Positions 33,614 to 46,200 of a stretch of DNA of 64,000 nt are shown one piece after another (the stretch's first letter is position 1; every line of letters starts with the position of its first letter). The notes under the pieces are model-generated. The model was not told the origin of the DNA. It ran no database searches and was given only the letters and a program-made list of their open reading frames with translations. The DNA comes from Candidatus Tayloriibacteriota bacterium (lineage in GTDB: Bacteria; Patescibacteriota; Minisyncoccia; Phycocordibacterales; PALSA-1337): positions 10,236-74,235 of the forward strand of contig JANNAN010000007.1 of assembly GCA_031384385.1 (NCBI GenBank). Direction: 5' to 3'. Made by a program: the position numbers and the translations under genes.

Positions 33614-33938
33614 TTTTTAAGATAAATAATTAGGTGTGTATAAATTAAAAATCCTTACTAAGGTAAGCATATTAATTTCACTTCAAATATTCAGGAGGCA
33701 AAATAATCTTCATCTTTTCGAATCCTAATGCGACGCCAGCAGAGGCGTCGTTCCTTCTGTGAATTAAAAATAGGCACATACACCGCGTTTTTTAATTGCT
33801 CGACATGGTGCGGGATATCGGAACCTTTTGGAAGACAAACAAAGAGCATATTTGGCTACCGAATATCAGGCAGGGTTTCTTTGGGATAGTACGACCAACG
33901 GACAAGGAAATGGCGAAATATCGCTAAATTACCGAAAG

Positions 33939-34160
33939 TGCATAGTGCAGTATGCGAAAAATACCTTTTCTGCATAGTACAGCGTGATGAGTATGCAAAA
34001 AAGGCAAATTTTGACCACTAAATACACTGTACTGGTCAAAAAGTACGTTTTTTGACCAGTACAACGTGTGAAGTGTACAAAAAAGGTAATTCTGTCCAGT
34101 AAAACAGGTTTGTTGGACAAAATCGGTACTTTTTGTCCAGTTGAGCGATGGTCCCAAGCT
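33939..34160. repeat. Array of ~5.5 direct repeat units (~40 bp, alternating two unit types), each containing an imperfect palindrome (TGACCAGTA...TACTGGTCA / TGTCCAG...TGGACA / TGCATAG...TATGCA) followed by AAAAAG(G/T)AC...TTTT
   Basis: Read directly: units at ~33939, 33971, 34013, 34054, 34094, 34135. The array shares a GTCCAGTAAAA/AAAAAGTA core with the 42760-43140 array. Confidence 0.6.
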
Positions 34161-34666
34161 TATTTCGGCCTGTCTCCCTTCAACAATCTCTCAAAAGCCT
34201 CAAGGTTCCCCATAGCATCATGCACTGGATGATGATCGTGCTTTGTTATACTTAGCCTTTTCCAAGATGAGGCGTCTTTGAAGTCTCCGATTAAGCCAGC
34301 ATAAAAATCACCGATTCTTCTAGCAGAATATCCAAATGGATTTCTGCCTAGGGTTCGATGAAAACTATCATTGATCCACTGCCAGTCAAAAGCAGGATTG
34401 TCACTGACAAATTTAGGTCTCTCCTCGCCGCTTATTTCTTGTAGCCAGGCATCAAACTTTTTGAACACCTCCACTTCATCAAAGACCACGCCGGTCGCCA
34501 CTTTGATATTAGAATCTTCATTAGAAGGCTTTCGTTCTACCAAGACGCCATGAAAAGTAGCCTTCGATGGATATGCAACCGCACCAAATTCAGTAAGTTG
34601 TCCCATACTCGGACACTTACCGTTTGCCTCACAATCTACAAAGATTAAATTTTTTAGACTTTCCAT
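34160..34666 (-). CDS. DEDDh 3'-5' exonuclease domain protein (DnaQ epsilon-like)
   Basis: Exo I FVDCEANG, Exo II SDNPAFDWQWI and Exo III HHPVHDAMGNLEAF (H-x4-D). Confidence 0.65.
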   Translation of the reverse strand: MESLKNLIFVDCEANGKCPSMGQLTEFGAVAYPSKATFHGVLVERKPSNEDSNIKVATGVVFDEVEVFKKFDAWLQEISGEERPKFVSDNPAFDWQWINDSFHRTLGRNPFGYSARRIGDFYAGLIGDFKDASSWKRLSITKHDHHPVHDAMGNLEAFERLLKGDRPK

Positions 34667-34740: not shown

Positions 34741-34823
34741 GTTTGAATACATTGATTGACTGGATGTATCCAAACATGTATACTTTGAATACATTATAAA
34801 AAAGATGTATACAAACATGAATT
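34741..34823. repeat. 42-bp direct repeat x2 (TTTGAATACATT-N8-GATGTATnCAAACATG) in the divergent promoter region, extending over the Fic start codon
   Basis: Unit 1 at 34741-34782 and unit 2 at 34783-34823. Both carry short TGTAT/ATACA inverted elements. Confidence 0.5.
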
Positions 34824-35959
34824 CTATCCAAATTGGCGAACTAAAAGAGCAGAAAGAAGGCTTCAAAGCTTTCATCCCAGGATCTTTTCCTCCGAAAGGC
34901 GGCTTTGAATTTGACCCTAAAATCGTAAAGAAAAGCGATGAGGCTACCCGTTTGCTCGGAAAGCTCGACGGCATCACTAAGCTTTTGCCAGATGCAGATT
35001 TTTTCTTGCTTATGTACTTGAGAAAAGATGCTGCATCATCAAGTCAGATCGAGGGTACAATGGCAACAATGGTTGATGCTATTGAAGCTGAAGTTCAGTC
35101 AAGCACAAAGATTCCGGAAGATGTAGATGATATTTTGCATTACATTAAAGCACTCAATTATGGAATGGAGCGGGTACAACAGGACAATTTTCCTATCTCG
35201 CTGAGGTTCATTCGAGAGCTACATAAGCAATTGATGGATAAGGCGCGCACTACACACTTCTCAGACCCAGGTGAGTTTAGGAAAACTCAAAACTGGATTG
35301 GTGGCACTCGTCCCGACAATGCTCGATTTGTTCCTCCACCGGTTGATGACATGAATAATGCACTGACTGATCTGGAAAAGTTCATGCACACTGACGATCC
35401 GACACTTACTTTGATCAAAGCGGCTCTTGTTCATGCCCAGTTTGAAACTATTCACCCGTTTCTAGATGGAAATGGCAGGACGGGCCGTATGCTTATAACC
35501 TTTTATTTATGGAAGGAAGGTTATCTCGAAAGACCGGTATTGTTTTTGTCATCCTTCTTTAAGAAGCACCAAAAAGTGTACTACGAGAGACTCTTCGGCT
35601 ATCACTTTGGTAATGCCGCGGAATGGGTTGATTTCTTTCTCGACGGCGTAATAGAGATCGCGAATGAAGCAATTGAAATTGTTTCGAAGATAACCGCACT
35701 CCGTGAAAAGGATGTCGTGAAGATACAGACGCTCGGTAAACGTGCTTCAGAAAGTGCGGTCCTTGTGCTGCCTAAATTGTATGGACAGCCAATTGTAAAT
35801 GTCTCCTTGATTCAAAAATGGACAGGGTTTAATCGTGCCGCATCTCAAACTGTAATCAAACGCTTTATAGACATGGGTATTCTTACTCCTAAGGATAAAG
35901 ATAAGAAGTATGGCAAATCATACATATACAAGAAATATGTAGATATTTTCTCTGAATAA
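34805..35959 (+). CDS. Fic/Doc-family protein (AMPylator-type Fido domain) with a C-terminal winged-helix
   Basis: Canonical Fic motif HPFLDGNGRTGRML. The start may instead be the ATG at 34817. Confidence 0.85.
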   Translation: MYTNMNSIQIGELKEQKEGFKAFIPGSFPPKGGFEFDPKIVKKSDEATRLLGKLDGITKLLPDADFFLLMYLRKDAASSSQIEGTMATMVDAIEAEVQSSTKIPEDVDDILHYIKALNYGMERVQQDNFPISLRFIRELHKQLMDKARTTHFSDPGEFRKTQNWIGGTRPDNARFVPPPVDDMNNALTDLEKFMHTDDPTLTLIKAALVHAQFETIHPFLDGNGRTGRMLITFYLWKEGYLERPVLFLSSFFKKHQKVYYERLFGYHFGNAAEWVDFFLDGVIEIANEAIEIVSKITALREKDVVKIQTLGKRASESAVLVLPKLYGQPIVNVSLIQKWTGFNRAASQTVIKRFIDMGILTPKDKDKKYGKSYIYKKYVDIFSE

Positions 35960-35964
35960 AATCT

Positions 35965-36153
35965 ATGAATCCCGTTGCAAACCAAAACCAAAAAGAAACC
36001 TATATCAAGTGCAGGAAATGCGGCACTGAGGTTTTTACCATTACAAATGGTGGTTTAATTCCATGTAAATGCGGTGCTATTTCCGTTGATGGCTCTACAG
36101 ACCTCGTGAGGGTACTTGGTAATCCCGAGGACTACGAGGAAATACAAAAATAA
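35965..36153 (+). CDS. Small zinc-ribbon protein (62 aa)
   Basis: CRKCG...CKCG. Lies between Fic and the RM gene. Confidence 0.35.
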   Translation: MNPVANQNQKETYIKCRKCGTEVFTITNGGLIPCKCGAISVDGSTDLVRVLGNPEDYEEIQK

Positions 36154-36157
36154 TTAT

Positions 36158-38833
36158 ATGAATCCTGTCGAACTTCAAGAAAATTTAGAGGATCTAACTG
36201 AAAACCTTTCGCGAGAAACGTTTATTTTTGAATTGTTGACAGCATACAGGTTGCCAAAAAGCACAGTCAGTCTTCTTAAGAAGAGTCCTTCTAAGTTATC
36301 TGGAAATAACAATCAAATTATTTTAAAAAATAAGGTCCTATTTCAAGCAACTACAATTGAGGAAGATGAGCATATTGTTATAGATAATCTCCAAAAAGAC
36401 AAAAATACATTTAGATACAACCCGAGATTTTTGATTGTTACTGATTTTCAAACATTACTTGCAGTAGATACCAAAACAAAAGAGACCCTAGATATCAAAA
36501 TAAATGACTTAGGGAGATACTATACCTTTTTCTTACCATGGGCAGGAATGGAGAAGGCACAACACGTAAACGAAAATCCTGCGGATATTCGTGCCGCAAG
36601 CAAGATGGCTAAGCTGTATGATCAAATAATAAAGGATAATCCCAATCACACTGAAAACGGACTCTATGATTTAAATGTTTTCCTATCACGGCTACTTTTT
36701 TGTTTTTTTGCTGAAGATACGGGGATATTCAAAAAGGGATTATTTACAAATTCGATTGATTCCAACACTCAAATATCAGGAGACGGCATTGGTGATTATT
36801 TCGACTCACTTTTTGATGTTTTAAATACAAAAGATACAGAGAGGTCGTCTTTTGCACATCATTTTACAGAATTTCCATATGTAAACGGCGGGCTGTTTGA
36901 AAAAAAGATCAAACTACCTATTTTTACTGCTAACTCACGTAGATTGATAATTGAGTGTGGGAAACTAGGTTGGGATGCTATCAATCCTGATATCTTCGGA
37001 TCAATGATCCAAGCGGTGGTTCATCCTGGTCAAAGAGAGAATCTGGGAATGCACTACACTTCTGTTCCGAATATAATGAAAGTCATTGAACCTCTTTTTC
37101 TAAATGATTTATATGATGAACTAGAAAATTCAAAAGATGATATTAAAAAACTAACAAAGCTACGAGAGCGTATATCAAAGATTAAAATATTTGATCCTGC
37201 TTGTGGCTCCGGTAATTTCCTGATTATTTCATATAAGGAATTATCAAAATTAGAATCAAAAATAATTGGTTGTGCTAAGGACATAGGACATCAAATGATG
37301 CCCTATTCAGGTGTGTCTCTAAACTCTTTTTATGGAATAGAGATAGATGATTTTGCACACGAGATTGCAAGGCTTTCATTGTGGCTTGCTCAGCACCAGA
37401 TGAATACCTATTTTGATGATCTGTTTGGAATGATGAAACCTACACTACCCCTCAAAGAGAGCGGAATAATTGTATGTAAAAATGCTGCAAGGATTGACTG
37501 GAATGTAGTGTGTCCTCGCATTGATTATAAAAATGAGAAATTTGAAATTTATATGGTCGGTAACCCACCATATCTAGGGTTCTTGCAACAGAAAGCTGAA
37601 CAAAAAAAAGACATGGATTTAGTTTTACCATTGGTTAATGGATATAGAAAACTAGATTACATCTCTTGCTGGTTCTATAAAGCAGCAGAATACATCTCAG
37701 AATCATTTGATATAAAAATTGCCTTTGTATCAACTAATTCGACTTCGCAAGGAGAACAGGCCTCTATTTTCTGGCCTGAAATATTCAAAATGAATGTCGA
37801 AATATTCTTCGCATACCAATCATTTAAATGGCAGAATAATGCCAAAAATAATGCTGGCGTTACCTGTGTGATTATTGGCTTGAGGAAAGTATCAAGTAAA
37901 CCAAAGTATTTATATGTTGATAATTTAAAAACTAGCGCAACAAATATAAACGCTTACTTAGCAAATTCAAGTAATGTCGTTGTTACCAAGAGAACAAAAC
38001 CGCTTTCAAATCTACCAACCATGGATCTTGGTAGTGCGGCGTATGATGGAGGTTACTTGATGCTTACTCAGGAAGAACGCAACGCCTTTATCAGTAATTC
38101 ACCTAAATCAGAGGATTTCATTAAACCTTTCATGGGATCAGCGGAGTTTATACGAAACATAAAAAGATATTGTATTTGGATTGAAGATAAAGATTCAGTT
38201 GAGGCAACTAAAATTCCAGATATTAAAAATAGATTAGAAATAGTAAAACTTTTTAGAGAAAAAAGCGGAAGAGGAAAAACACTTGAGACTGCTGAGACCC
38301 CCTATAAATTTACAGAAATAAGATATAAAAAAGCTCCAGCAATTATTGCACCGATCATTTCTTCTGAGACAAGAGAATATATACCTTTTGGTTTTATAAA
38401 GGAGGGTATCGTTGTGCCAAATTCAGCAAGAATTATATATAATTCTGAACCTCATATTTTTGCAATCATAACTTCTAGAATGCATATGGTATGGGTCCGC
38501 GCTGTTGCGGGCAGATTAAAAACTGATATTAGATACTCAGGAACGATTTGCTATAACACCTTTCCGTTTCCCTCAATTACTCTTCAACAAAAAGAAGAAC
38601 TTACTGGCCATGTTTACAATATCTTAGGTGAGCGAGAAAAATATCCCAATAGAACAATGGCAGAACTCTATGATCCAGATAAGATGCCAGATGGATTAAA
38701 AGTTGCGCATAAATATCTCGATACAGCAATTGACCAAATATATAGAAGTAAACCATTTGAAAATGACGAGAGCCGACTGTCGCATCTATTTAAACTCTAC
38801 GAAGAAATGATTATTAATGAAACAAACCAATAA
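36158..38833 (+). CDS. MmeI-like Type IIL/IIG restriction-modification fusion enzyme: N-terminal putative PD-DxK nuclease, gamma-class N6-adenine methyltransferase and a C-terminal target-recognition region
   Basis: MTase motif I KIFDPACGSGNFLI and motif IV VGNPPYLG. The YVNGGLF helical-domain motif is present. N-terminal D...VDTK is a possible PD-(D/E)xK. About 890 aa. ATG 36158 is preferred over the TTG-extended ORF at 36116. Confidence 0.7.
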   Translation: MNPVELQENLEDLTENLSRETFIFELLTAYRLPKSTVSLLKKSPSKLSGNNNQIILKNKVLFQATTIEEDEHIVIDNLQKDKNTFRYNPRFLIVTDFQTLLAVDTKTKETLDIKINDLGRYYTFFLPWAGMEKAQHVNENPADIRAASKMAKLYDQIIKDNPNHTENGLYDLNVFLSRLLFCFFAEDTGIFKKGLFTNSIDSNTQISGDGIGDYFDSLFDVLNTKDTERSSFAHHFTEFPYVNGGLFEKKIKLPIFTANSRRLIIECGKLGWDAINPDIFGSMIQAVVHPGQRENLGMHYTSVPNIMKVIEPLFLNDLYDELENSKDDIKKLTKLRERISKIKIFDPACGSGNFLIISYKELSKLESKIIGCAKDIGHQMMPYSGVSLNSFYGIEIDDFAHEIARLSLWLAQHQMNTYFDDLFGMMKPTLPLKESGIIVCKNAARIDWNVVCPRIDYKNEKFEIYMVGNPPYLGFLQQKAEQKKDMDLVLPLVNGYRKLDYISCWFYKAAEYISESFDIKIAFVSTNSTSQGEQASIFWPEIFKMNVEIFFAYQSFKWQNNAKNNAGVTCVIIGLRKVSSKPKYLYVDNLKTSATNINAYLANSSNVVVTKRTKPLSNLPTMDLGSAAYDGGYLMLTQEERNAFISNSPKSEDFIKPFMGSAEFIRNIKRYCIWIEDKDSVEATKIPDIKNRLEIVKLFREKSGRGKTLETAETPYKFTEIRYKKAPAIIAPIISSETREYIPFGFIKEGIVVPNSARIIYNSEPHIFAIITSRMHMVWVRAVAGRLKTDIRYSGTICYNTFPFPSITLQQKEELTGHVYNILGEREKYPNRTMAELYDPDKMPDGLKVAHKYLDTAIDQIYRSKPFENDESRLSHLFKLYEEMIINETNQ

Positions 38834-40784
38834 ATTCATGAAAACAATTCAAGTAGCGGAAGCTACATACAAACAAACCGGAGAAAGTACAAAAATAAAT
38901 GAACTTGGAATGCGCGAAATGCAGGCTAAAGCATTTGAAAAACGTACTGCTCAATACCTACTTTTAAAAGCACCTCCAGCTTCAGGAAAGTCTCGTGCGC
39001 TGATGTTCCTTGCACTCGATAAGTTACAGAATCAAAATATCAAAAAAGTTATTGTTGCTGTTCCAGAAAAAACAATTGGTGGATCTTTCAGTGATACAAA
39101 TCTCAAAACTGAAGGTTTCTTTGCTGACTGGAAATTAAATGACGATTATAACTTGTGTACGCCAGGTACCGATGGTAGCAGTAGCAAGGTCCAAGCCTTT
39201 AAAAACTTTATGGACAATAACGAGAAGGTTCTTGTTTGCACCCACGCAACTTTGAGATTTGCCTGCGAACAGATCGAGGATTCAAAATTTAATGATACTT
39301 TGATTGCTATTGATGAATTTCACCATGTCTCTGCGGACAAAGAGAGTAGTACGCTTGGGCGCGTTTTACATGGAATAATGACTAATTCAAGTGCTCACGT
39401 GATTGCAATGACAGGATCTTATTTTAGAGGTGATGGTGTGGCGGTCCTATTACCTCAGGATGAAGAAAAATTTACAAAAGTTACGTATAACTATTACCAG
39501 CAACTCAACGGATATAATTTTTTGAAGTCGCTTGGTATCGGGTACCATTTTTATCAAGGTAAATATACATCAGCAATCAGTGAGGTTCTTGATACAAACA
39601 AAAAAACGATACTACATATTCCAAATGTTAATTCAGGTGAATCAACAAAAGATAAACTAAACGAGGTCGATCTTATTTTAGATATTATTGGCGAAGTAGA
39701 TCATCAAGATCATGATACTGGGGTTATTTACGTAAAAAGAGACGGAGACAGCAAGATATTAAAAGTCGCTAACCTTGTGGATGATTCTGTAGACCGTGAA
39801 AAAATATCAGGATATCTAAGGACAATGAAGAAGGAAGACGACATGGACATTATTATTGCACTTGGTATGGCAAAGGAAGGTTTTGATTGGCCATACTGTG
39901 AGCACGCTCTTACTGTCGGCTACCGAAGCTCTTTAACAGAGATCATTCAAATAATCGGTCGCTGCACTCGTGATAGTTCAAATAAGACACATGCTCAATT
40001 TACAAATCTTATTGCTCAGCCAGACGCACAAGATAGTCAGGTAAAGATATCAGTCAACAATATGCTTAAGGCAATTACATGCTCGCTACTCATGGAGCAA
40101 GTAATGGCCCCTCATTACAATTTTAAACCAAAGTTTCCGAATGACGGTACCGACTTTATCCCTGGTGAAATAAAAATAAATGGATTTAAAGAGCCGAGTT
40201 CAGACAGAGTAAGAGAAATTATTGAATCAGATATCAATGATCTCAAGGCTTCAATTTTACAGGACGACCAGATCGTAAGAGCCCTTCCTGGTAATGTTGA
40301 TCCAGAAGTTATAAACAAAGTAATGATCCCAAAGATTATTCGGATCAAGTACCCTGATCTGAGTGATCTTGAGGTTGAAGAAGTGAGACAGCATGTAGTT
40401 GTTGATTCTGTAATCAAGAATGGCGAAATAAAAGAAATCGGAGATAAACGTTTTGTTAGAATGGCAGGACAATTTGTAAATATTGATGAACTTAACATAG
40501 ACCTTATCGATAGGATAAACCCATTCCAGGAAGCCTTTGAGATACTTTCAAAATCAGTCACATCAAATATACTAAAAGTCATTCAGGATACAATCGACTC
40601 ATCAAGAATTGAAATGACTCCTGAGGAGGTTAGAATCCTATGGCCTAAGGCGAAAGAGTTTAAAGAAAGAACTGGTCGAGTCCCAGAACTTAACTCTGCG
40701 GACCCTCTGGAAAAGCGTTTAGCAGAGGCGTTGGTATACTTGAGAAAGATAAAAGTTGAACAAGCAAACAATAAGCATGAGTAA
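38817..40784 (+). CDS. SF2 DExH-box helicase (restriction Res-subunit-like ATPase) lacking its own nuclease domain
   Basis: Walker A APPASGKSRA, DExH box AIDEFHHV and motif VI QIIGRCTRD. The start overlaps the upstream gene by 17 nt (alternative ATG at 38838). Confidence 0.8.
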   Translation: MKQTNKFMKTIQVAEATYKQTGESTKINELGMREMQAKAFEKRTAQYLLLKAPPASGKSRALMFLALDKLQNQNIKKVIVAVPEKTIGGSFSDTNLKTEGFFADWKLNDDYNLCTPGTDGSSSKVQAFKNFMDNNEKVLVCTHATLRFACEQIEDSKFNDTLIAIDEFHHVSADKESSTLGRVLHGIMTNSSAHVIAMTGSYFRGDGVAVLLPQDEEKFTKVTYNYYQQLNGYNFLKSLGIGYHFYQGKYTSAISEVLDTNKKTILHIPNVNSGESTKDKLNEVDLILDIIGEVDHQDHDTGVIYVKRDGDSKILKVANLVDDSVDREKISGYLRTMKKEDDMDIIIALGMAKEGFDWPYCEHALTVGYRSSLTEIIQIIGRCTRDSSNKTHAQFTNLIAQPDAQDSQVKISVNNMLKAITCSLLMEQVMAPHYNFKPKFPNDGTDFIPGEIKINGFKEPSSDRVREIIESDINDLKASILQDDQIVRALPGNVDPEVINKVMIPKIIRIKYPDLSDLEVEEVRQHVVVDSVIKNGEIKEIGDKRFVRMAGQFVNIDELNIDLIDRINPFQEAFEILSKSVTSNILKVIQDTIDSSRIEMTPEEVRILWPKAKEFKERTGRVPELNSADPLEKRLAEALVYLRKIKVEQANNKHE

Positions 40785-41925
40785 CGATAATTTATTAGAT
40801 TTGATAAATGACGATGATTCCGGACTTCTTGATATTAAAGAGAAGGCTATTTCTATCACCCCAGACGATCGATTATTAGAATCATTTATGGAGATTAATG
40901 ACTTTTTTAAAACTCATAACTCAGAGCCAAAATCTGGTGGTGATATTCACGAGCACAAGCTTTCTTCAAGGTTGAAACATATCAGGGAAAATAAAGATCT
41001 CAAAGAATTTTTATCGAAGTATGATACATATAAACTATTAGCCGTAAGTACTAAGAATTTAGAGACCGTTAGTGATATCTTTGAAGATGATAGTCTTGGC
41101 CTGCTATCAGTTGAAGATACGTCAATTTTTAACATAACAAATGTTCCTGAAGTAGACAAAGATCGTTCGGATCCCGATTTTATTGCCAAGAGAGAAAGAG
41201 TTGTTGATTTTGAAAAATATAAGCATTTGTTTGATCAGTGTCAGAGAGAACTAAAAAACGGAACTAAAAAAATATCAAGTTTTGTTGAGGGTGAAATGAA
41301 AAAAGGTGACTTCTTTGTTTTAAGTGGAGTACTTGTGTATCTTGAGGACATCTTCAACCCTTACAGAGGTAATAGTCAGAAAATAAACCGAAGAACAAGA
41401 TGTATTTATGAAAACGGCACAGAATCAAATGTCTTACTGAGATCTCTTGGAAAGAGACTGTCTGAAGTCGGATATGCTGTTAAGGACAACGACCCGATGC
41501 CTGAAATTGATACCGACGATAAAGAAACTGGATATATTTATGTTTTAAAATCACTCAGTATGGATCCTAGAATTAATAGTACAAGAAATCTTTTTAAGAT
41601 TGGTTTTTCTACCATAACCGTTGAAGAAAGAATTAAAAATGCTGATCAGGATCCTACTTATCTTATGGCACCTGTTTCTATTGTGGCAACCTATAGGTGC
41701 TTTAACATGAACCCTCAAAGACTTGAAAGATTACTTCACCGATTCTTTACTGACTCATGTCTTGATATCGAAATAACTGATAAAAGCGGAAATAAATATA
41801 CTCCCAAGGAATGGTTCGTAGCGCCGATTGTTGTTGTCGAGAAAGTTATAGACCTAATCATAAAGGGAGATATCGTTAATTATGTATATGACAAAAGTAC
41901 TGAAAAAGTCATTTTAAATCAATAA
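40777..41925 (+). CDS. T5orf172/MUG113-type (GIY-YIG superfamily) domain protein
   Basis: GYIYVLKS...(17 aa)...KIGFSTITVEERI matches the T5orf172 pattern GyvYvl...KIGxT...R. The ATG overlaps the helicase stop (ATGAGTAA). The six-frame ORF is extended to 40756 by TTG. Confidence 0.55.
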   Translation: MSNDNLLDLINDDDSGLLDIKEKAISITPDDRLLESFMEINDFFKTHNSEPKSGGDIHEHKLSSRLKHIRENKDLKEFLSKYDTYKLLAVSTKNLETVSDIFEDDSLGLLSVEDTSIFNITNVPEVDKDRSDPDFIAKRERVVDFEKYKHLFDQCQRELKNGTKKISSFVEGEMKKGDFFVLSGVLVYLEDIFNPYRGNSQKINRRTRCIYENGTESNVLLRSLGKRLSEVGYAVKDNDPMPEIDTDDKETGYIYVLKSLSMDPRINSTRNLFKIGFSTITVEERIKNADQDPTYLMAPVSIVATYRCFNMNPQRLERLLHRFFTDSCLDIEITDKSGNKYTPKEWFVAPIVVVEKVIDLIIKGDIVNYVYDKSTEKVILNQ

Positions 41926-41928
41926 AGA

Positions 41929-42654
41929 TTGTTCATGAAAAATATAGAAGAAGGACTCAAAGAGATCTACGAAAATATAAGAAAATTAGAATCCTTAATA
42001 AATACTAAAAATGATCTTACTAGGATACATAAGGACAATGTATTTAATAGGAGATTTTCTGTTGTTCTCAGTGATTTTTCTGATCTTGAAACTATAGGAA
42101 TGAGACTTAATAAAAACATACCTGAAGTTGAGACTTTACAGAGGATTATACAAAAACGCTTCAAGTCCGAAGATAAGGACAGAATTACAGATGAAGGTCA
42201 AAGACTGCACCAAGAATCGGATAAGATTAATCGAGAAAATCAGGTAGATTTCAAATGTTTATATATTTTTTCAAAGATATTTCTTGATCAATATACTACT
42301 CTAATCAAATTATTATTTAATTGGCGAGGTATTGGCGACAAGTCAATTACAAGTTTTTATAATAGCCTAGAAAAATATAAAGGAGAGGAAGAACAGATCA
42401 TTTCTTTTAAAGATAGTTGCTTAAAAAGACTTAAAGCAATTGATGTTTTTGTAACAGAATACCGTGATCAATATGTTGTGCATGATCAAACTAAACATAA
42501 AGATACAAGATGGTTTTTAAATGATATGACGGGCAGTGTTAGATTTATTGGTGGTAGGCCATCAATAACACCACAGGAGTTGGTTTTTGTTGTTTCTAAT
42601 TATATTAAGGACTCCGTCACCTTTATAAAAGATCAAGAAAGCACCCTGAATTAG
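41929..42654 (+). CDS. Hypothetical protein (241 aa), last gene of the four-gene cluster
   Basis: Starts 4 nt after the T5orf172 gene on the same strand. No recognisable motifs. Confidence 0.5.
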   Translation: MFMKNIEEGLKEIYENIRKLESLINTKNDLTRIHKDNVFNRRFSVVLSDFSDLETIGMRLNKNIPEVETLQRIIQKRFKSEDKDRITDEGQRLHQESDKINRENQVDFKCLYIFSKIFLDQYTTLIKLLFNWRGIGDKSITSFYNSLEKYKGEEEQIISFKDSCLKRLKAIDVFVTEYRDQYVVHDQTKHKDTRWFLNDMTGSVRFIGGRPSITPQELVFVVSNYIKDSVTFIKDQESTLN

Positions 42655-42759
42655 GGCCTAAATTGCCCTGTGTACGCTTTTCCAAGCCTATTCAGGGCTT
42701 TTTACGTGTCTTGGCCAATACCCACTAATTTGCACTAATTCCGACCCCATACTTACTGG

Positions 42760-43140
42760 GTCCTGGGAAATTGATTGCACACACTTTTCAACATTTTTAG
42801 CGCCTCATACTATGTGGGTCCAGTAAAAAAGTAGAAATTGACTCCGCACGATTTTCCACGTTTTTACCAGGACATACTTATAGGATCCAAAGAGATAAAA
42901 GTAATTCCTACAGTTAGGAACTTTATACACCTTAGGATAAACCCATAATCTTAGGCCTAAAAAGTAATGCACCATATTTTGCATTTTTTAGAGCCTAGGA
43001 TTAAGTAGTTCTCTGGTCCGAAGTAATTCCTGCAATTAGTGAATTACAAGACCTCAGAATAGACAAATCGGATGACCCAAAAGTAATGCACGTAATTTTG
43101 CATTAAATAAGGTCTACGATACATACATTCCCATTGCACG
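42760..43140. repeat. About six degenerate tandem repeats of ~65 bp (GGRTCC..AAAAGTAR..ATT..GCAC..TTTT..AGGNCT), iteron-like
   Basis: Units begin near 42760, 42819, 42886, 42953, 43016 and 43073. Examples: TAATGCACCATATTTTGCATTTTTTAGAGCCTAGGA vs TAATGCACGTAATTTTGCATTAAATAAGGTCTACGA. Confidence 0.6.
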
Positions 43141-43185
43141 GAAAGAGCTGAGTCAACTTGCAATGGGGACTCAGCTCTTTCTGTT
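43126..43185 (+). promoter_or_regulatory. Two interleaved inverted repeats (CCCATTGCA...TGCAATGGG and AGAGCTGAGTC...GACTCAGCTCT), a pseudoknot-like or alternative-hairpin element followed by CTGTTTTC
   Basis: The arms are ordered a-b-a'-b' with 9-bp and 11-bp stems, immediately upstream of or overlapping the 43163 ORF start. Confidence 0.45.
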
Positions 43186-43510
43186 TTCAAAAAGAGCCAG
43201 CTCGATAAAGGTCGAAAGAAAAACCCTCATGCTTACCAAACACGCACTAGAAGAATACAAAGAAATACATCGCCAGGAAACCGGCGCGGTTTTTCCTGAT
43301 GACGTGTTGGCTAATGAGGCAATTAACTTGCTTACTCTTTTTAACTTTGTCTATCGACCGATCAAAAAAGAGTGGCTGAAAGAATATGGACGACAAAATA
43401 AATCTAAACGAGGAATGGCAGAGAATTCTCAGTCAGAAGAACAAATCGCCGAAACGAGTGGCGAAGTTCGAAGAATTCAAAAAGACCCATCTCGAACAAA
43501 CCAGGAGTGA
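43163..43510 (+). CDS. Small hypothetical protein (115 aa). Overlaps the next ORF in another frame, so possibly not real.
   Basis: ORF only. The start lies inside the hairpin element. Confidence 0.25.
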   Translation: MGTQLFLFSKRASSIKVERKTLMLTKHALEEYKEIHRQETGAVFPDDVLANEAINLLTLFNFVYRPIKKEWLKEYGRQNKSKRGMAENSQSEEQIAETSGEVRRIQKDPSRTNQE

Positions 43511-44375
43511 AATAAATCCGGACACACTTCGCAGTAAGAAAAAGCCTAACAGGTTTGTTGTCGATAACGAGTATGTCAAAGGTTATTATCTGGCGAAATT
43601 TCCACCGGTCTGTTCCCAGGTGCTTTTGACGTTACTTGTCCACTGCAATCTCAATAGACAGGATGCGTTTCCGAGCATTGTCACTATTCAAGAACTCTCC
43701 GGATGTACCAACACTCGAAGTGTCATTAGTGCTCTTAGGATTCTTGAGGCCTACGGGATAATTAACATTCGTCGGTCCAAGAGAGGGGTAAAAGCAGTGA
43801 ATGTCTATTTCTTTCAGTCGGTCCGACATTGGAGACCACTCTCAAAGAGCATGAAAAAGATTAAGCTCACCGATCCATTACCGCAATGGCAAAATCCCGT
43901 CCAGAGCACTGGCAGAAAACAGACCTATCGTACTGGCCCTACTGCCAGTCTAACTAACCTAAGAGAAAACTATAATAATAAAATACAAAATATTGGAGAT
44001 ATTTTAAGGGAAAGATTCAAAATGCCAGAAGACCCGTCTAAGGTTGCTATTCCTACACCTTCTAGCAATACTGTCGTCGATGACAAAAAGGCAGAAGACA
44101 TGGAACCTGATACGCCTGTTAGAACAGGTGAAAAACAAGGGTATCGTACTGGCACTAATGCCACTACGATTGATACCCGTAATAACGGGAAATTAACGGG
44201 AACCGAAAGTCAGAGACATGGCATGTCATCAGCCGTTTATAAACGGGAAATAACGGTCGAAAAACCTCCCGAGGATCCATTTGTAAATGGTGAAAAATGG
44301 ACTAAGGAAGATGAGGGTATCGGTCTGATGAATATCAACAATGAAGATATCGGACCAGGAAGCGCAACATTATAA
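43386..44375 (+). CDS. Winged-helix DNA-binding protein, plasmid/phage replication-initiator-like (Rep-type HTH)
   Basis: LLTLLVHCNLNRQDAFPSIVTIQELSGCTNTRSVISALRILEAYGIINIRR is a typical replication-protein winged-helix. C-terminal repeated ...TGxKQxYRTG... motifs. Located downstream of the iteron-like array. Confidence 0.5.
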   Translation: MDDKINLNEEWQRILSQKNKSPKRVAKFEEFKKTHLEQTRSEINPDTLRSKKKPNRFVVDNEYVKGYYLAKFPPVCSQVLLTLLVHCNLNRQDAFPSIVTIQELSGCTNTRSVISALRILEAYGIINIRRSKRGVKAVNVYFFQSVRHWRPLSKSMKKIKLTDPLPQWQNPVQSTGRKQTYRTGPTASLTNLRENYNNKIQNIGDILRERFKMPEDPSKVAIPTPSSNTVVDDKKAEDMEPDTPVRTGEKQGYRTGTNATTIDTRNNGKLTGTESQRHGMSSAVYKREITVEKPPEDPFVNGEKWTKEDEGIGLMNINNEDIGPGSATL

Positions 44376-44380
44376 AAACT

Positions 44381-46042
44381 ATGAATAATAAAATACCCAC
44401 AATCAAATACTTCCTCTACGCTAGAAAATCTAGTGAAGCGGAAGACAGACAAGCGGCATCAATCGATGCCCAGAAAGATGAACTCTTAAAGATTGCACAA
44501 GAGCAAGGTTTAACCATTGTTGAGATTCTTACCGAATCACAGTCAGCTAAGAAACCAGGAAGACCGATATTCAACAAGATGCTTGAGCGAATCTACAAAG
44601 GCGAAGCAAATGGAATCATTTGTTGGAAGTTGGACCGACTTGCTCGTAACCCAGTAGATGGCGGGCAGATAAGCTGGATGTTACAGCAGAGTGCGATCGC
44701 ACAGATCGTTACGTTCGGCCGAACATACTATCCGACTGATAACGTTCTCATGATGCAGGTTGAGCTTGGAATGGCGAATCAATACATCCGAGACTTGTCG
44801 GTAAACGTAAAGCGAGGACTGGCAAAGAAGGTCCGAGAAGGCTGGCTACCAAGTATGTGTCCAGTCGGGTACATGAGTACACCTGACAGAGAAAAGGGAT
44901 TCAAGACAATCATGAAGGACCCTGATAGATTTCCTGTAGTAAAAAGATTGTTCGATTTAATGCTCAGTGGTAATTACAGCACCTGCCAAATATGGGACGT
45001 GGCTCGTAAGGAGTTGAATCTGAAAACATATCAGCGCAGACATATGGGTGGCAAACATCTTTCCAAAAGTGGTATCTATGCACTCTTGAGCAATCCTTTC
45101 TACTACGGCTGGTTTGAATATCCCTACAAGAGCGGAGAATGGCACAAAGGTGCGCATGAGGCCATGATCACCGAAGAAGAATTCAACAAGGTCCAGATCA
45201 TTATGGGTAGGACTATGCAACCTCGGCCAAGACCAGAGCGCAACTTTGCATTTACTTCACTCATGAAATGTGGCACGTGTGGCTGTAGCATTACTGCTCA
45301 GGCGAAAGTAAAACGCCAGAAGAACGGCAACGTCCACCACTACGTTTATTACAATTGCACCAAGAAAAAAGTAGACGTGAAGTGTCCCGAGCAATGTCTC
45401 GAACTCAAGAACCTCGAACTAGATATCAAAGGCAAGCTAAGCGAGATCACTATTTCAGAAAGATTCAAAGACTGGGCGATCAAGCACCTCCATGAACTCC
45501 GAAAGACGGAAGTCGATAGCGACACCTTGGTCTTTAAGGGCAAACACAAAGAGCTTGAGGAGGTAACAAAGAATTTGCAGTCACTCACGCTCAACTTCAC
45601 CTCACCTAAAAACAGCGAAAGAGCGATAATTACAGACGAAGAATACCAAACTCTCAAAGTTGGAATGGTGAAAAAGAAATTGATCCTCGAAGACGAACTG
45701 AAAGTAAAAAATAAAGAGGTTTTGGAATGGATAGACCTCACCGAGCAGACCTTTGACTTTGCCTGCTATGCCCACATTTGGTTTGAAAAAGGAGACGATA
45801 AAGCCAAAAGAGCGATACTTGCATGTTTAGGCTCGAACCTCACCCTAAAAGGCAAAAAGGTCTTTGTAAATTACCATTCTTTCGTAAAGACACTCATAAA
45901 AAGTCGTCAGGCGGTTGAAGACGAATTAGAGAAGGTTAGAACCTCCAAAGTATCAAGCAATAAAAGACAAAACCCCACAAATTGTGAGGTTTCGTCACTA
46001 GGGCTCCGGCGGCAGGGATCGAACCTGCGACCTTTCCGTTAA
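44381..46042 (+). CDS. Large serine recombinase (integrase). The 3' end overlaps tRNA-Asn on the opposite strand.
   Basis: N-terminal resolvase domain YARKSSEAEDRQAASIDAQ (Ser nucleophile region), a recombinase domain, a zinc ribbon (CGTCGC...YYNCTKKK..C..C) and a C-terminal coiled-coil. 553 aa. Confidence 0.85.
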   Translation: MNNKIPTIKYFLYARKSSEAEDRQAASIDAQKDELLKIAQEQGLTIVEILTESQSAKKPGRPIFNKMLERIYKGEANGIICWKLDRLARNPVDGGQISWMLQQSAIAQIVTFGRTYYPTDNVLMMQVELGMANQYIRDLSVNVKRGLAKKVREGWLPSMCPVGYMSTPDREKGFKTIMKDPDRFPVVKRLFDLMLSGNYSTCQIWDVARKELNLKTYQRRHMGGKHLSKSGIYALLSNPFYYGWFEYPYKSGEWHKGAHEAMITEEEFNKVQIIMGRTMQPRPRPERNFAFTSLMKCGTCGCSITAQAKVKRQKNGNVHHYVYYNCTKKKVDVKCPEQCLELKNLELDIKGKLSEITISERFKDWAIKHLHELRKTEVDSDTLVFKGKHKELEEVTKNLQSLTLNFTSPKNSERAIITDEEYQTLKVGMVKKKLILEDELKVKNKEVLEWIDLTEQTFDFACYAHIWFEKGDDKAKRAILACLGSNLTLKGKKVFVNYHSFVKTLIKSRQAVEDELEKVRTSKVSSNKRQNPTNCEVSSLGLRRQGSNLRPFR

Positions 46043-46075
46043 CAGCGGATTGCTCTACCTCTGAGCTACACCGGA
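46004..46075 (-). tRNA. tRNA-Asn (anticodon GTT)
   Basis: Manual fold on the minus strand: 7-bp acceptor stem (one G-U pair), D arm GCTC-AGAGGTA-GAGC, anticodon loop CTGTTAA, 5-nt variable loop, T arm GCAGG-TTCGATC-CCTGC, discriminator G. No encoded CCA. Confidence 0.8.
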
Positions 46076-46200
46076 ATGTGTATTAATTTCGTTCCTTTTG
46101 TTAAGAACATAAGTATACTATCAGATATATATATAAAAGTGAAGATAAAATAGATTATTATAAATAATAATAAAAGATTATTTGAGCTAGATTTTAAACA

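Follow-up and report, generated by a model that had tools for sequence, protein, structure and literature searches.

Theta-replicating plasmids such as pSC101, pPS10, R6K and F combine an iteron/operator region with an autoregulated rep gene, and the origins of RepA_N plasmids lie inside the rep gene itself. The rep genes of pT181 and of pIP501/pAMβ1 have transcription attenuation leaders, and the sopC centromere of plasmid F is built of tandem 43-bp repeats, each with an inverted repeat. Replication genes are also found on islands, SCCmec for one, that are mobilised by a large serine recombinase (LSR). The Patescibacteria account for a large share of bacterial diversity, and their mobile elements are little known. 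Pipolins integrate at tRNA genes as islands whose defence cargo can be exchanged (PMC11551731). Here we analyse a stretch of 64,000 nucleotides from a Candidatus Tayloriibacteriota bacterium (contig JANNAN010000007.1; hereafter the window, to whose numbering all coordinates refer), which holds an LSR-moved island of about 12 kb. Our subject is the island's noncoding interval, 42655-43228, a conserved intergenic control region in which a terminator, an array of six palindromic units and an interleaved RNA leader follow one another. With moderate confidence, we read it as the cis control region that separates swappable defence cargo from the island's core operon.

Results

Conservation of the Intergenic Region

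Relatives of the locus were collected from the contigs of the database clusters of its winged-helix protein, from a pattern scan of species genomes and from a metagenome scan, giving about 40 related copies. All come from metagenome-assembled genomes of Patescibacteria or from metagenomes, and the named hosts are Saccharibacteria, Parcubacteria/Paceibacteria, Taylorbacteria and Zambryskiibacteria. Searches of viral contigs and of cultured phage and plasmid collections returned no relatives, and a limited literature search found no account of this island family. One order is common to all loci: variable restriction/defence cargo, terminator, palindromic units, leader, a small gene that we call ORF93, the HTH_36 winged-helix protein and the LSR. 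Throughout the loci, conservation holds for the noncoding region, which at the nucleotide level is about as well conserved as the recombinase gene, and for codons 1-53 of ORF93, while the winged-helix gene is far more variable. The island has spread over Patescibacteria classes with LSRs that are 83-96% identical.

An Interleaved RNA Leader with Two Alternative Folds

Upstream of ORF93, two inverted repeats are interleaved in the order a-b-a'-b' on the plus strand (43130-43183). A preliminary description of this DNA, made from its letters alone, had noticed them, and b:b' proved longer than it stated, at 16 bp. Segment a (43130-43138, CCCATTGCA) pairs with a' (43159-43167, TGCAATGGG), which lies in the b:b' loop and abuts b'. 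Segment b (43139-43154) is the 5' arm of a terminator-like hairpin; its 3' arm, b' (43168-43183), is followed by the U-rich tail TTTTC (43184-43188), and a repeat search likewise returned a 17-nt inverted repeat, 43138-43154/43168-43184. A further segment, c (43188-43197, CAAAAAGAGC), is similar to b and, in transcripts that read through, can pair with b' in turn; it varies together with the b' type over 29 leaders, as judged by eye without a formal count.

Both helices covary. In 14 distinct aligned variants, with 9 pairs counted for a:a' and 16 for b:b', 350 of 350 base-pair cells form standard pairs, and 11 of the 25 pairs have changed on both sides (5/9 in a:a' and 6/16 in b:b'); slid controls gave zero such pairs in five cases out of six, and 2 in the sixth. 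One position, for example, reads CCC/GGG, CCA/TGG or CCT/AGG, and one locus (L029) has GTGAG...CTCACAA in place of the entire GCAC...TGCAA segment. G·U pairs are confined to the plus strand, at one pair in 11/14 sequences and at another in 5/14; the opposite strand would show them as A·C mismatches. The plus strand also folds more stably (-31.2 kcal/mol, z -6.7) than the minus strand (-23.8 kcal/mol). Covariation, plus-only G·U pairs and the difference in folding between the strands together argue that the leader is a sense-strand RNA structure; a structure of plus-strand single-stranded DNA is less likely. Rfam, searched in both gathering and E-value modes, returned only tRNA and chance microRNA-like matches, and none for the leader or the units.

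The preliminary description had left open whether the two repeats form mutually exclusive hairpins or an H-type pseudoknot, and only the former stands. The connecting loops measure 0-3, 3-4 and 0 nt, and b:b' can extend to touch a. A pseudoknot would set loop 3, of 0 nt, opposite a 9-bp stem, and loop 1, of 0-3 nt, opposite a stem of 13-16 bp; by the established geometry of pseudoknots, a 0-nt loop cannot cross a 9-bp stem, and the two helices must therefore be alternatives. Simulated nascent folding agrees: in 5/5 variants, RNA up to a' folds into a:a' (-13 to -17 kcal/mol), and once b' is added it folds into b:b' (-28 to -34 kcal/mol). The leader offers two features expected of an attenuator, a stable stem (16-bp b:b' at -31 kcal/mol) with a U-rich tail on the sense strand, present after b:b' in most variants, and a conserved, mutually exclusive alternative fold with compensatory changes in either helix. 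A terminator consensus scan missed b:b' because its loop is 13 nt long. From these properties we infer a two-state kinetic attenuator, in which a:a' would delay or prevent the terminator and some factor would shift the balance. Of the roles first proposed for the hairpin, that of terminator or regulatory switch is strongly supported by covariation and nascent folding, and that of nick site is not borne out, the open reading frames (ORFs) scanned in the island encoding no HUH nuclease.

In a distant relative (L041, winged-helix protein 24% identical), a long hairpin with similar interleaving and then a T-run come shortly before the ORF93-like gene. Inspection by eye of the strand opposite the leader revealed no conserved antisense promoter. 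A T-box-like leader pairing with tRNA-Asn was considered and rejected; the 8-mer shared with this host's tRNA is missing in other hosts.

An Array of Palindromic Units

Upstream of the leader, six degenerate units of 58-71 bp run consecutively over 42745-43126 on the plus strand. As the preliminary description had it, they share GGNCC, AAAGTAAT, GCAC, a T-run and a TAGGAT-like end. A repeat search found direct matches of 44-55 nt at 61-73% identity and 58-67-bp spacing. Tandem Repeats Finder, proposed as a check, gave nothing relevant in the array, and self-autocorrelation showed no excess over shuffles, so that the window by itself does not suffice to show the array to be a direct repeat. The units are established by the periodicity of their hairpins and by comparison with the other loci. 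Each folds into one imperfect hairpin of 50-60 nt (-7 to -24.5 kcal/mol), and the 389-nt array folds far better than dinucleotide shuffles do (z -5.9 on the plus strand, -3.9 on the minus strand).

Hidden Markov models (HMMs) of the units, built from other loci with the window and its two near-identical relatives left out, match all six units and nothing else significantly in the window, five of them with E values of 6e-13 to 2e-7. Five core types, A to E, can be told apart, A being AAAGTAATGCAC...TTTTGCAY and B AAAGTAATTCCTACAGTTAGGAA. Unit 1 (42745-42802) is of type C, with the core AAATTGATTGCACACAC...TTTT (C/D HMM, 42759-42810, E 1.4e-11); unit 2 (42803-42872), an inverted repeat of type D with the core AAATTGACTCCGCACGATTTTCCACGTTTTT, is matched at 42832-42877 (C/D HMM, E 4.3e-12); unit 3 (42873-42943) has the type B core AAAGTAATTCCTACAGTTAGGAA (A/B HMM, 42887-42939, E 8.7e-9). 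The type A unit 4 (42944-43007, core AAAGTAATGCACCATATTTTGCATTTTTT; A/B HMM, 42945-43002, E 6.2e-13) is the best palindrome among the six, at -24.5 kcal/mol. Unit 5 (43008-43067) is a degenerate type B, with E 0.13 in the independent HMM and E 1.2e-4 in one that included the window's own units, and unit 6 (43068-43126) is again of type A (A/B HMM, 43073-43120, E 2.2e-7).

The preliminary description had staked its reading on the units being conserved in homologous elements, and the unit types indeed recur in 30 distinct homologous arrays, with 2-7 copies each and 194-474 nt between the upstream terminator motif and the leader. These arrays are evolutionarily related, and counts across them are not independent. 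Span-limited folding divides them into hairpin domains of mostly 50-64 nt, with centres about 58-68 nt apart. An A-run, a small hairpin and a T-run are common to all units, whose apex is conserved and whose base is variable; the core, AAAGTAAT-GCAC...TTTTGCAC, is near-invariant in its AAAGTAAT-GCAC part over 88 distinct units, and most units terminate in TAGGAT, TAAGAT or TACGAT. Comparison of two loci (L007 and L008) shows that the repeated TAGGAT/TAAGAT ends are where whole units have been gained or lost. The unit HMMs match this intergenic region only, and always on the plus strand, both in the window and in every locus fetched.

What is it that the units conserve? Their arms differ in sequence between units, yet symmetry is kept: the pairing energy is -11.2 kcal/mol for cognate arms and -8.9 for shuffled partners (38 non-redundant units, permutation p < 0.0002). 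None of the marks of RNA structure seen in the leader accompanies this symmetry. The arms pair equally well on both strands, which also fold alike (-14.8 kcal/mol on the plus and -15.0 on the minus strand, 52 units), G·T oppositions are not in excess over A·C (72 versus 106), and in 12 collinear orthologous arrays, where 87.7% of cells are paired, most substitutions break pairs. Only 5 pairs in those arrays show compensatory changes, against 0-6 in slid controls, and the RNAalifold covariation term of -0.27 gives no convincing covariation. What the units conserve is sequence, namely the core and the T-run, and with no RNA signature, double-stranded DNA sites for a protein fit more readily than an RNA. 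Also compatible are cruciforms, or hairpins formed by either strand of the DNA.

Several other repeat classes were considered for the units. Genome-wide repetitive extragenic palindromes (REP/BIME) or miniature inverted-repeat transposable elements were rejected, the unit HMMs matching solely this region of the window and the fetched loci. An integron attC array was rejected as well, the recombinase being a serine recombinase and the units having no ORFs between them. ToxIN-like arrays consist of near-identical 34-36-nt tandem repeats, followed by a terminator and an endoribonuclease toxin; a Type III toxin-antitoxin system of that kind was set aside, the units being degenerate (61-73% identity) and about 60 bp long and the downstream genes having no match to a toxin family. 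As LSR pseudo-att or Xer/dif sites, the units bear no convincing likeness by eye.

Features of a Replication Origin

The preliminary description took the units for iterons of a replication origin. The units are indeed conserved in homologous elements and vary in number, but they are palindromes of 50-56 bp at an irregular spacing of 55-68 bp. Classical iterons are direct repeats of 17-22 bp in helical phase, as these 58-71-bp units are not, and a rolling-circle origin is not indicated either, neither an HUH nor a Rep_trans nuclease being found among the island ORFs scanned. An AT-rich unwinding element was not recognised by eye, and no measurement of it was made. On their plus strand, the 30 arrays are strongly enriched in 9-mers that resemble the DnaA box (TTWTNCACA; 13 exact copies and 78 with one mismatch, versus 0.7 and 15 in shuffles), an enrichment that is inflated by the relatedness of the arrays and that we keep as a lead only; the minus strand is depleted in these 9-mers. 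The window's own array has no exact box and three one-mismatch copies. An origin/operator array is the best, if unproven, reading of the units, but with several defining features of classical iteron origins missing, origin function would be a possibility.

The Cargo-End Terminator and the Candidate Core Promoter

The upstream border of the region is formed by a cargo-end module (42652-42704, plus strand), a terminator-like hairpin followed by a T-run. Its 6-bp helix joins GCCCTG (42665-42670) to CAGGGC (42693-42698) across the invariant loop GTGTACGCTTTTC and covaries over 30 variants (GCCCTG/CAGGGC, GCCCCG/CGGGGC, CCCCTG/CAGGGG). Between elements with unrelated cargo, conservation begins at the stop codon of the last cargo gene. 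The stop codons of unrelated final cargo genes lie in the start of the conserved terminator block, which suggests that the block is a fixed docking point for cargo.

At the other end of the array, just upstream of the leader, unit 6 contains a TTGCAT box (43098-43103) and, 16 nt further on, TACATA (43120-43125). Together they may form a weak promoter-like pair. The type A last units of 13 loci likewise have a TTGCAC or TTGCAT box 16 nt upstream of a TATAAA-like hexamer that ends 5-9 nt before segment a.

Extent of the Island

The segment lies inside the island, which extends roughly from 33.7 to 46.0 kb of the window. At the right, element-derived sequence stops at ...CACTAGGGCTCC, at about 46007, at the 3' ends of tRNA-Asn genes, here the host tRNA-Asn (GTT; 46001-46076, minus strand), whose 3' end is the integration point. 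The same stopping base is found in different hosts although their tRNA-Asn bodies differ, and one relative (L005) occupies a non-tRNA site; together these place the right end. As an LSR island should, the element has a defined host junction at a conserved target on the right, the left junction being approximate, and one of its ends encodes a recombinase that combines Resolvase, Recombinase and zinc-ribbon domains. The G+C fraction is 0.42-0.43 at 43-46 kb and about 0.26-0.37 in neighbouring sequence.

We considered whether the 3.4-kb conserved core is the whole mobile element and rejected this. Beyond the cargo, on its far side, lies a left-end gene (34160-34666, minus strand; 168 residues, with weak similarity to DEDD 3'-5' exonucleases) that is 84-90% identical in three elements, and it is this gene that sets the island's extent and makes the segment internal. 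A displaced tRNA-Asn half was looked for as the left end, and the window has none. No transfer genes were recognisable among the island ORFs scanned. The contigs of two loci with the same element (L003 and L004, ends 8588 and 8550) both break off inside tRNA-Asn just past the junction, as expected if the samples mix integrated with empty or excised forms.

The cargo differs from locus to locus. In the window (34805-42654) it comprises a Fic protein, an MmeI-family restriction-modification enzyme, a DEAD/ResIII helicase, a T5orf172/GIY-YIG-like protein and a 241-residue protein with a faint SLATT-like match; other loci have Type I restriction-modification, DpnII with a large ATPase, a Type IIG methylase or AbiE.

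A second repeat-rich noncoding stretch lies near the left side of the island (33926-34150). Five copies of the motif TTYTGWCCAGT, spaced about 41 bp apart, fall there in a span of 133 bp, accompanied by direct repeats of 25-51 nt and long inverted repeats. The stretch is missing from L039 and L005, and its motif has no exact match at the corresponding position of other loci; it could be another cis site or a remnant.

Genes of the Core Operon

The winged-helix gene was described at first as lying directly downstream of the repeats. It does occupy 43386-44375 on the plus strand, but ORF93 (43229-43510, plus strand) comes first, and the two genes share 125 nt, read in different frames. A two-helix domain of 53 residues makes up the conserved part of ORF93 and ends exactly at the ATG of the winged-helix gene, which the tail of ORF93 overlaps; this arrangement is found in all loci and in distant relatives. 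ORF93 has 123 database clusters and belongs to no Pfam family. It stays paired with the HTH_36 gene in distant relatives, in one of them (L043) also with the LSR, and is found alone, too, after restriction cargo and with no array.

The winged-helix protein has 30 close database clusters only, all of them metagenomic. Its resemblance to replication initiators, which the preliminary description had proposed, is weak but consistent. It matches three PHROG families named 'replication initiation protein' (6e-7 to 6e-5) and an O-like family (0.004), and a profile search returned 757 remote relatives; among the 73 that were sampled, all carry HTH_36, 8 also DnaD_N and one RepL. The AlphaFold model has helices at the N terminus, then a winged helix predicted with confidence (residues 61-146), and disorder in the C-terminal half (160-329); its best Foldseek matches in the PDB are the N-terminal domains of RepA_N initiators and of DnaD (E 0.015-0.05, 11-18% identity). 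A Rep_3-type initiator would have two winged-helix domains; here Pfam recognises HTH_36 only, and the model has one winged helix and a disordered tail. Sequence searches of the PDB with this protein and with ORF93 gave nothing meaningful. On this evidence, from profiles and a predicted model, the label 'Rep-like' is plausible but weak. The protein is 31-93% identical across loci, in two allele groups. Such variability of one gene between a conserved leader, ORF93 and LSR points to mosaic recombination within the core. A 43-nt direct repeat in the gene (43905-43947/44121-44163, 74% identity) encodes a repeated K-x-x-YRTG-x-x-A motif in the disordered tail.

The LSR (44381-46042, plus strand) has Resolvase, Recombinase and Zn_ribbon domains and XisF/Ccr-like matches in NCBIfam. 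Its frame crosses the junction at about 46007 and ends at a TAA inside the tRNA-Asn anticodon loop (45990-46042), so that its last 12 or so codons are host-encoded and would change on excision. The LSR of L005, at its different site, has 570 residues and that of the window 553.

Discussion

We propose the following model for the control region. A conserved terminator would close the cargo operon. Beyond it, the 2-7 palindromic units of about 60 bp, six of them here, would form an array of binding sites for a protein, most likely the DnaD/RepA_N-like winged-helix protein that the island itself encodes. The last unit extends over the weak -35-like box of the putative core promoter, where a bound protein would repress the operon; in addition, the array as a whole might be the origin of an excised circle, in the manner of plasmid iteron/operator regions. 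Transcription would begin just past the last unit and at once yield the two-state leader. There a:a' would form first, keeping b in its loop, and the stronger b:b' with its U-rich tail would form fully only when a:a' is kept from forming or has melted. The balance of these hairpins would set how much transcription reaches ORF93, the winged-helix gene and the LSR, and thereby excision and any replication.

Several observations weigh against this model. The -35-like box matches the consensus at 3/6 positions and was not called by a promoter scan; a few variants (L006, L033 and L037) have a poor U-tail after b'. The spacing of the units is irregular, about 55-68 bp, and the units are hence not in helical phase. 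Distant relatives with an ORF93-like gene have no array. The same A-A-B-A array occurs with winged-helix alleles that are 31-40% identical to the window protein, so that the composition of the array does not follow that protein. The protein itself scores 25.7 bits against the Pfam HTH_36 cut-off of 25, its Foldseek E values exceed 0.01, and generic repressors score almost as well.

Might the array serve replication rather than transcription control? As the vegetative origin of the excised element, its units would be iterons bound by a winged-helix initiator, a reading that we regard as possible but doubtful. Conserved, copy-variable units in one orientation beside an initiator-like gene, DnaA-box-like 9-mers enriched on the plus strand of the 30 arrays and the replication genes of the LSR-mobilised SCCmec speak for it. 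Palindromes of 50-56 bp at irregular spacing are unlike iterons of 17-22 bp, however, the protein is not of the two-domain Rep_3 type, no AT-rich unwinding element was noticed by eye, and the array does not co-vary with the winged-helix alleles; the window array lacks an exact DnaA-like box, and kinship among the arrays inflates the enrichment. That the array has little function of its own, its units being weak AU-rich bidirectional terminators that insulate the core from the cargo, or repeats that change by unequal crossing-over, seems very improbable to us. It would agree with the A-run, small hairpin and T-run of every unit, with the gain and loss of whole units between L007 and L008 and with distant relatives that manage with no array. 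Yet the apical hairpins are very weak as terminators, the full unit hairpins are not trailed by a T-run, and a strong conserved terminator already lies upstream; nor would one expect, of passive repeats, a AAAGTAAT-GCAC core near-invariant over 88 distinct units in a noncoding region about as conserved as the recombinase gene.

The folding of the array, far better than that of its shuffles, could also mean that it is transcribed as a whole and works as a long structured 5' untranslated region, or as a non-coding RNA of hairpin modules ending at b:b'. In L041, a near-consensus promoter lies about 300 nt upstream of the ORF93-like gene and is followed by a long structured leader, and in the units cognate arms stay complementary while their sequences differ. 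The same analysis that marks the leader as RNA sets the array in sharp contrast to it, though: the units fold without strand bias, A·C oppositions exceed G·T, the covariation term is -0.27, compensatory pairs are as few as in slid controls while many substitutions break pairs, and Rfam has no match. We therefore hold the RNA reading to be quite improbable. Least probable of all the readings considered are single-stranded DNA hairpins that act as priming or complementary-strand origin signals (sso/ssi-like) after uptake or transfer of one strand, an idea that is wholly inferential. Natural transformation is reported for Saccharibacteria (PMC10187176), and the hairpins keep their potential on both strands with arms that differ between units, a conserved apex and a variable base, in an island that has crossed Patescibacteria classes (LSR 83-96%) with no recognisable transfer genes among the scanned ORFs. 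Against it, the island encodes no primase and no rolling-circle Rep, orthologous units lose pairs without compensation, and the units have no likeness to the known sso/ssi families in Rfam.

A more far-reaching proposal, which we consider rather unlikely, is that the array is a new kind of cis-element in Patescibacteria LSR islands, a modular array of hairpin-forming units and an origin or establishment signal of the excised or imported island, possibly acting after transformation, that is coupled to a new interleaved RNA switch gating excision. If true, it would account for the spread of one island type between Patescibacteria classes in the absence of any transfer genes.

Under the model of a cis control region, as under its rivals, a compact cargo-swapping island of about 12 kb whose LSR keeps 83-96% identity between classes is a matter of interest in the study of horizontal transfer, and the island or its LSR could become a genetic tool for Patescibacteria. 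The leader is a well-supported new cis-regulatory RNA, interleaved, covarying in both helices and with no Rfam match, whose predictions are directly testable. The units are an unusual repeated DNA element, the binding partner of which can be tested with one purified protein.

How does the region compare with known systems? Like theta plasmids, the island has sites in one orientation and of variable copy number upstream of an initiator-like gene, and a palindromic site that overlaps the gene's promoter, here a candidate promoter. Theta plasmids, in contrast, have direct repeats of 17-22 bp in helical phase and a WH1-WH2 initiator, while here palindromes of 50-56 bp recur at 55-68-bp spacing, and the protein has one winged helix with a disordered tail and belongs to an integrative element. 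RepA_N initiators (PDB 4pt7, 4pql, 5kbj) and the DnaD N-terminal domain (PDB 2v79) are its best, weak fold matches; RepA_N origins lie within the rep gene, whereas the candidate sites here lie upstream. The array also resembles sopC, a tandem array in which each unit carries a palindrome and which is bound by a helix-turn-helix protein, but the island has no ParA/ParB-type genes, and its units are much more degenerate.

For the leader, the closest likeness is with pT181 and pIP501/pAMβ1, where a 5' leader before a replication-type gene likewise has two exclusive folds, one of them a terminator. Unlike in those plasmids, exclusion here comes from interleaving, with a' in the terminator loop and abutting b', and no strand is shared; nor did inspection by eye find a promoter for an antisense RNA. 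As a whole, the island resembles pipolins and the LSR-mobilised SCCmec in setting a conserved mobility or replication core beside variable defence genes at a conserved host site. Its core, in contrast, consists of ORF93, an HTH_36 protein and an LSR, its hosts are Patescibacteria, and its palindromic array and RNA leader are features not described for pipolins or SCCmec.

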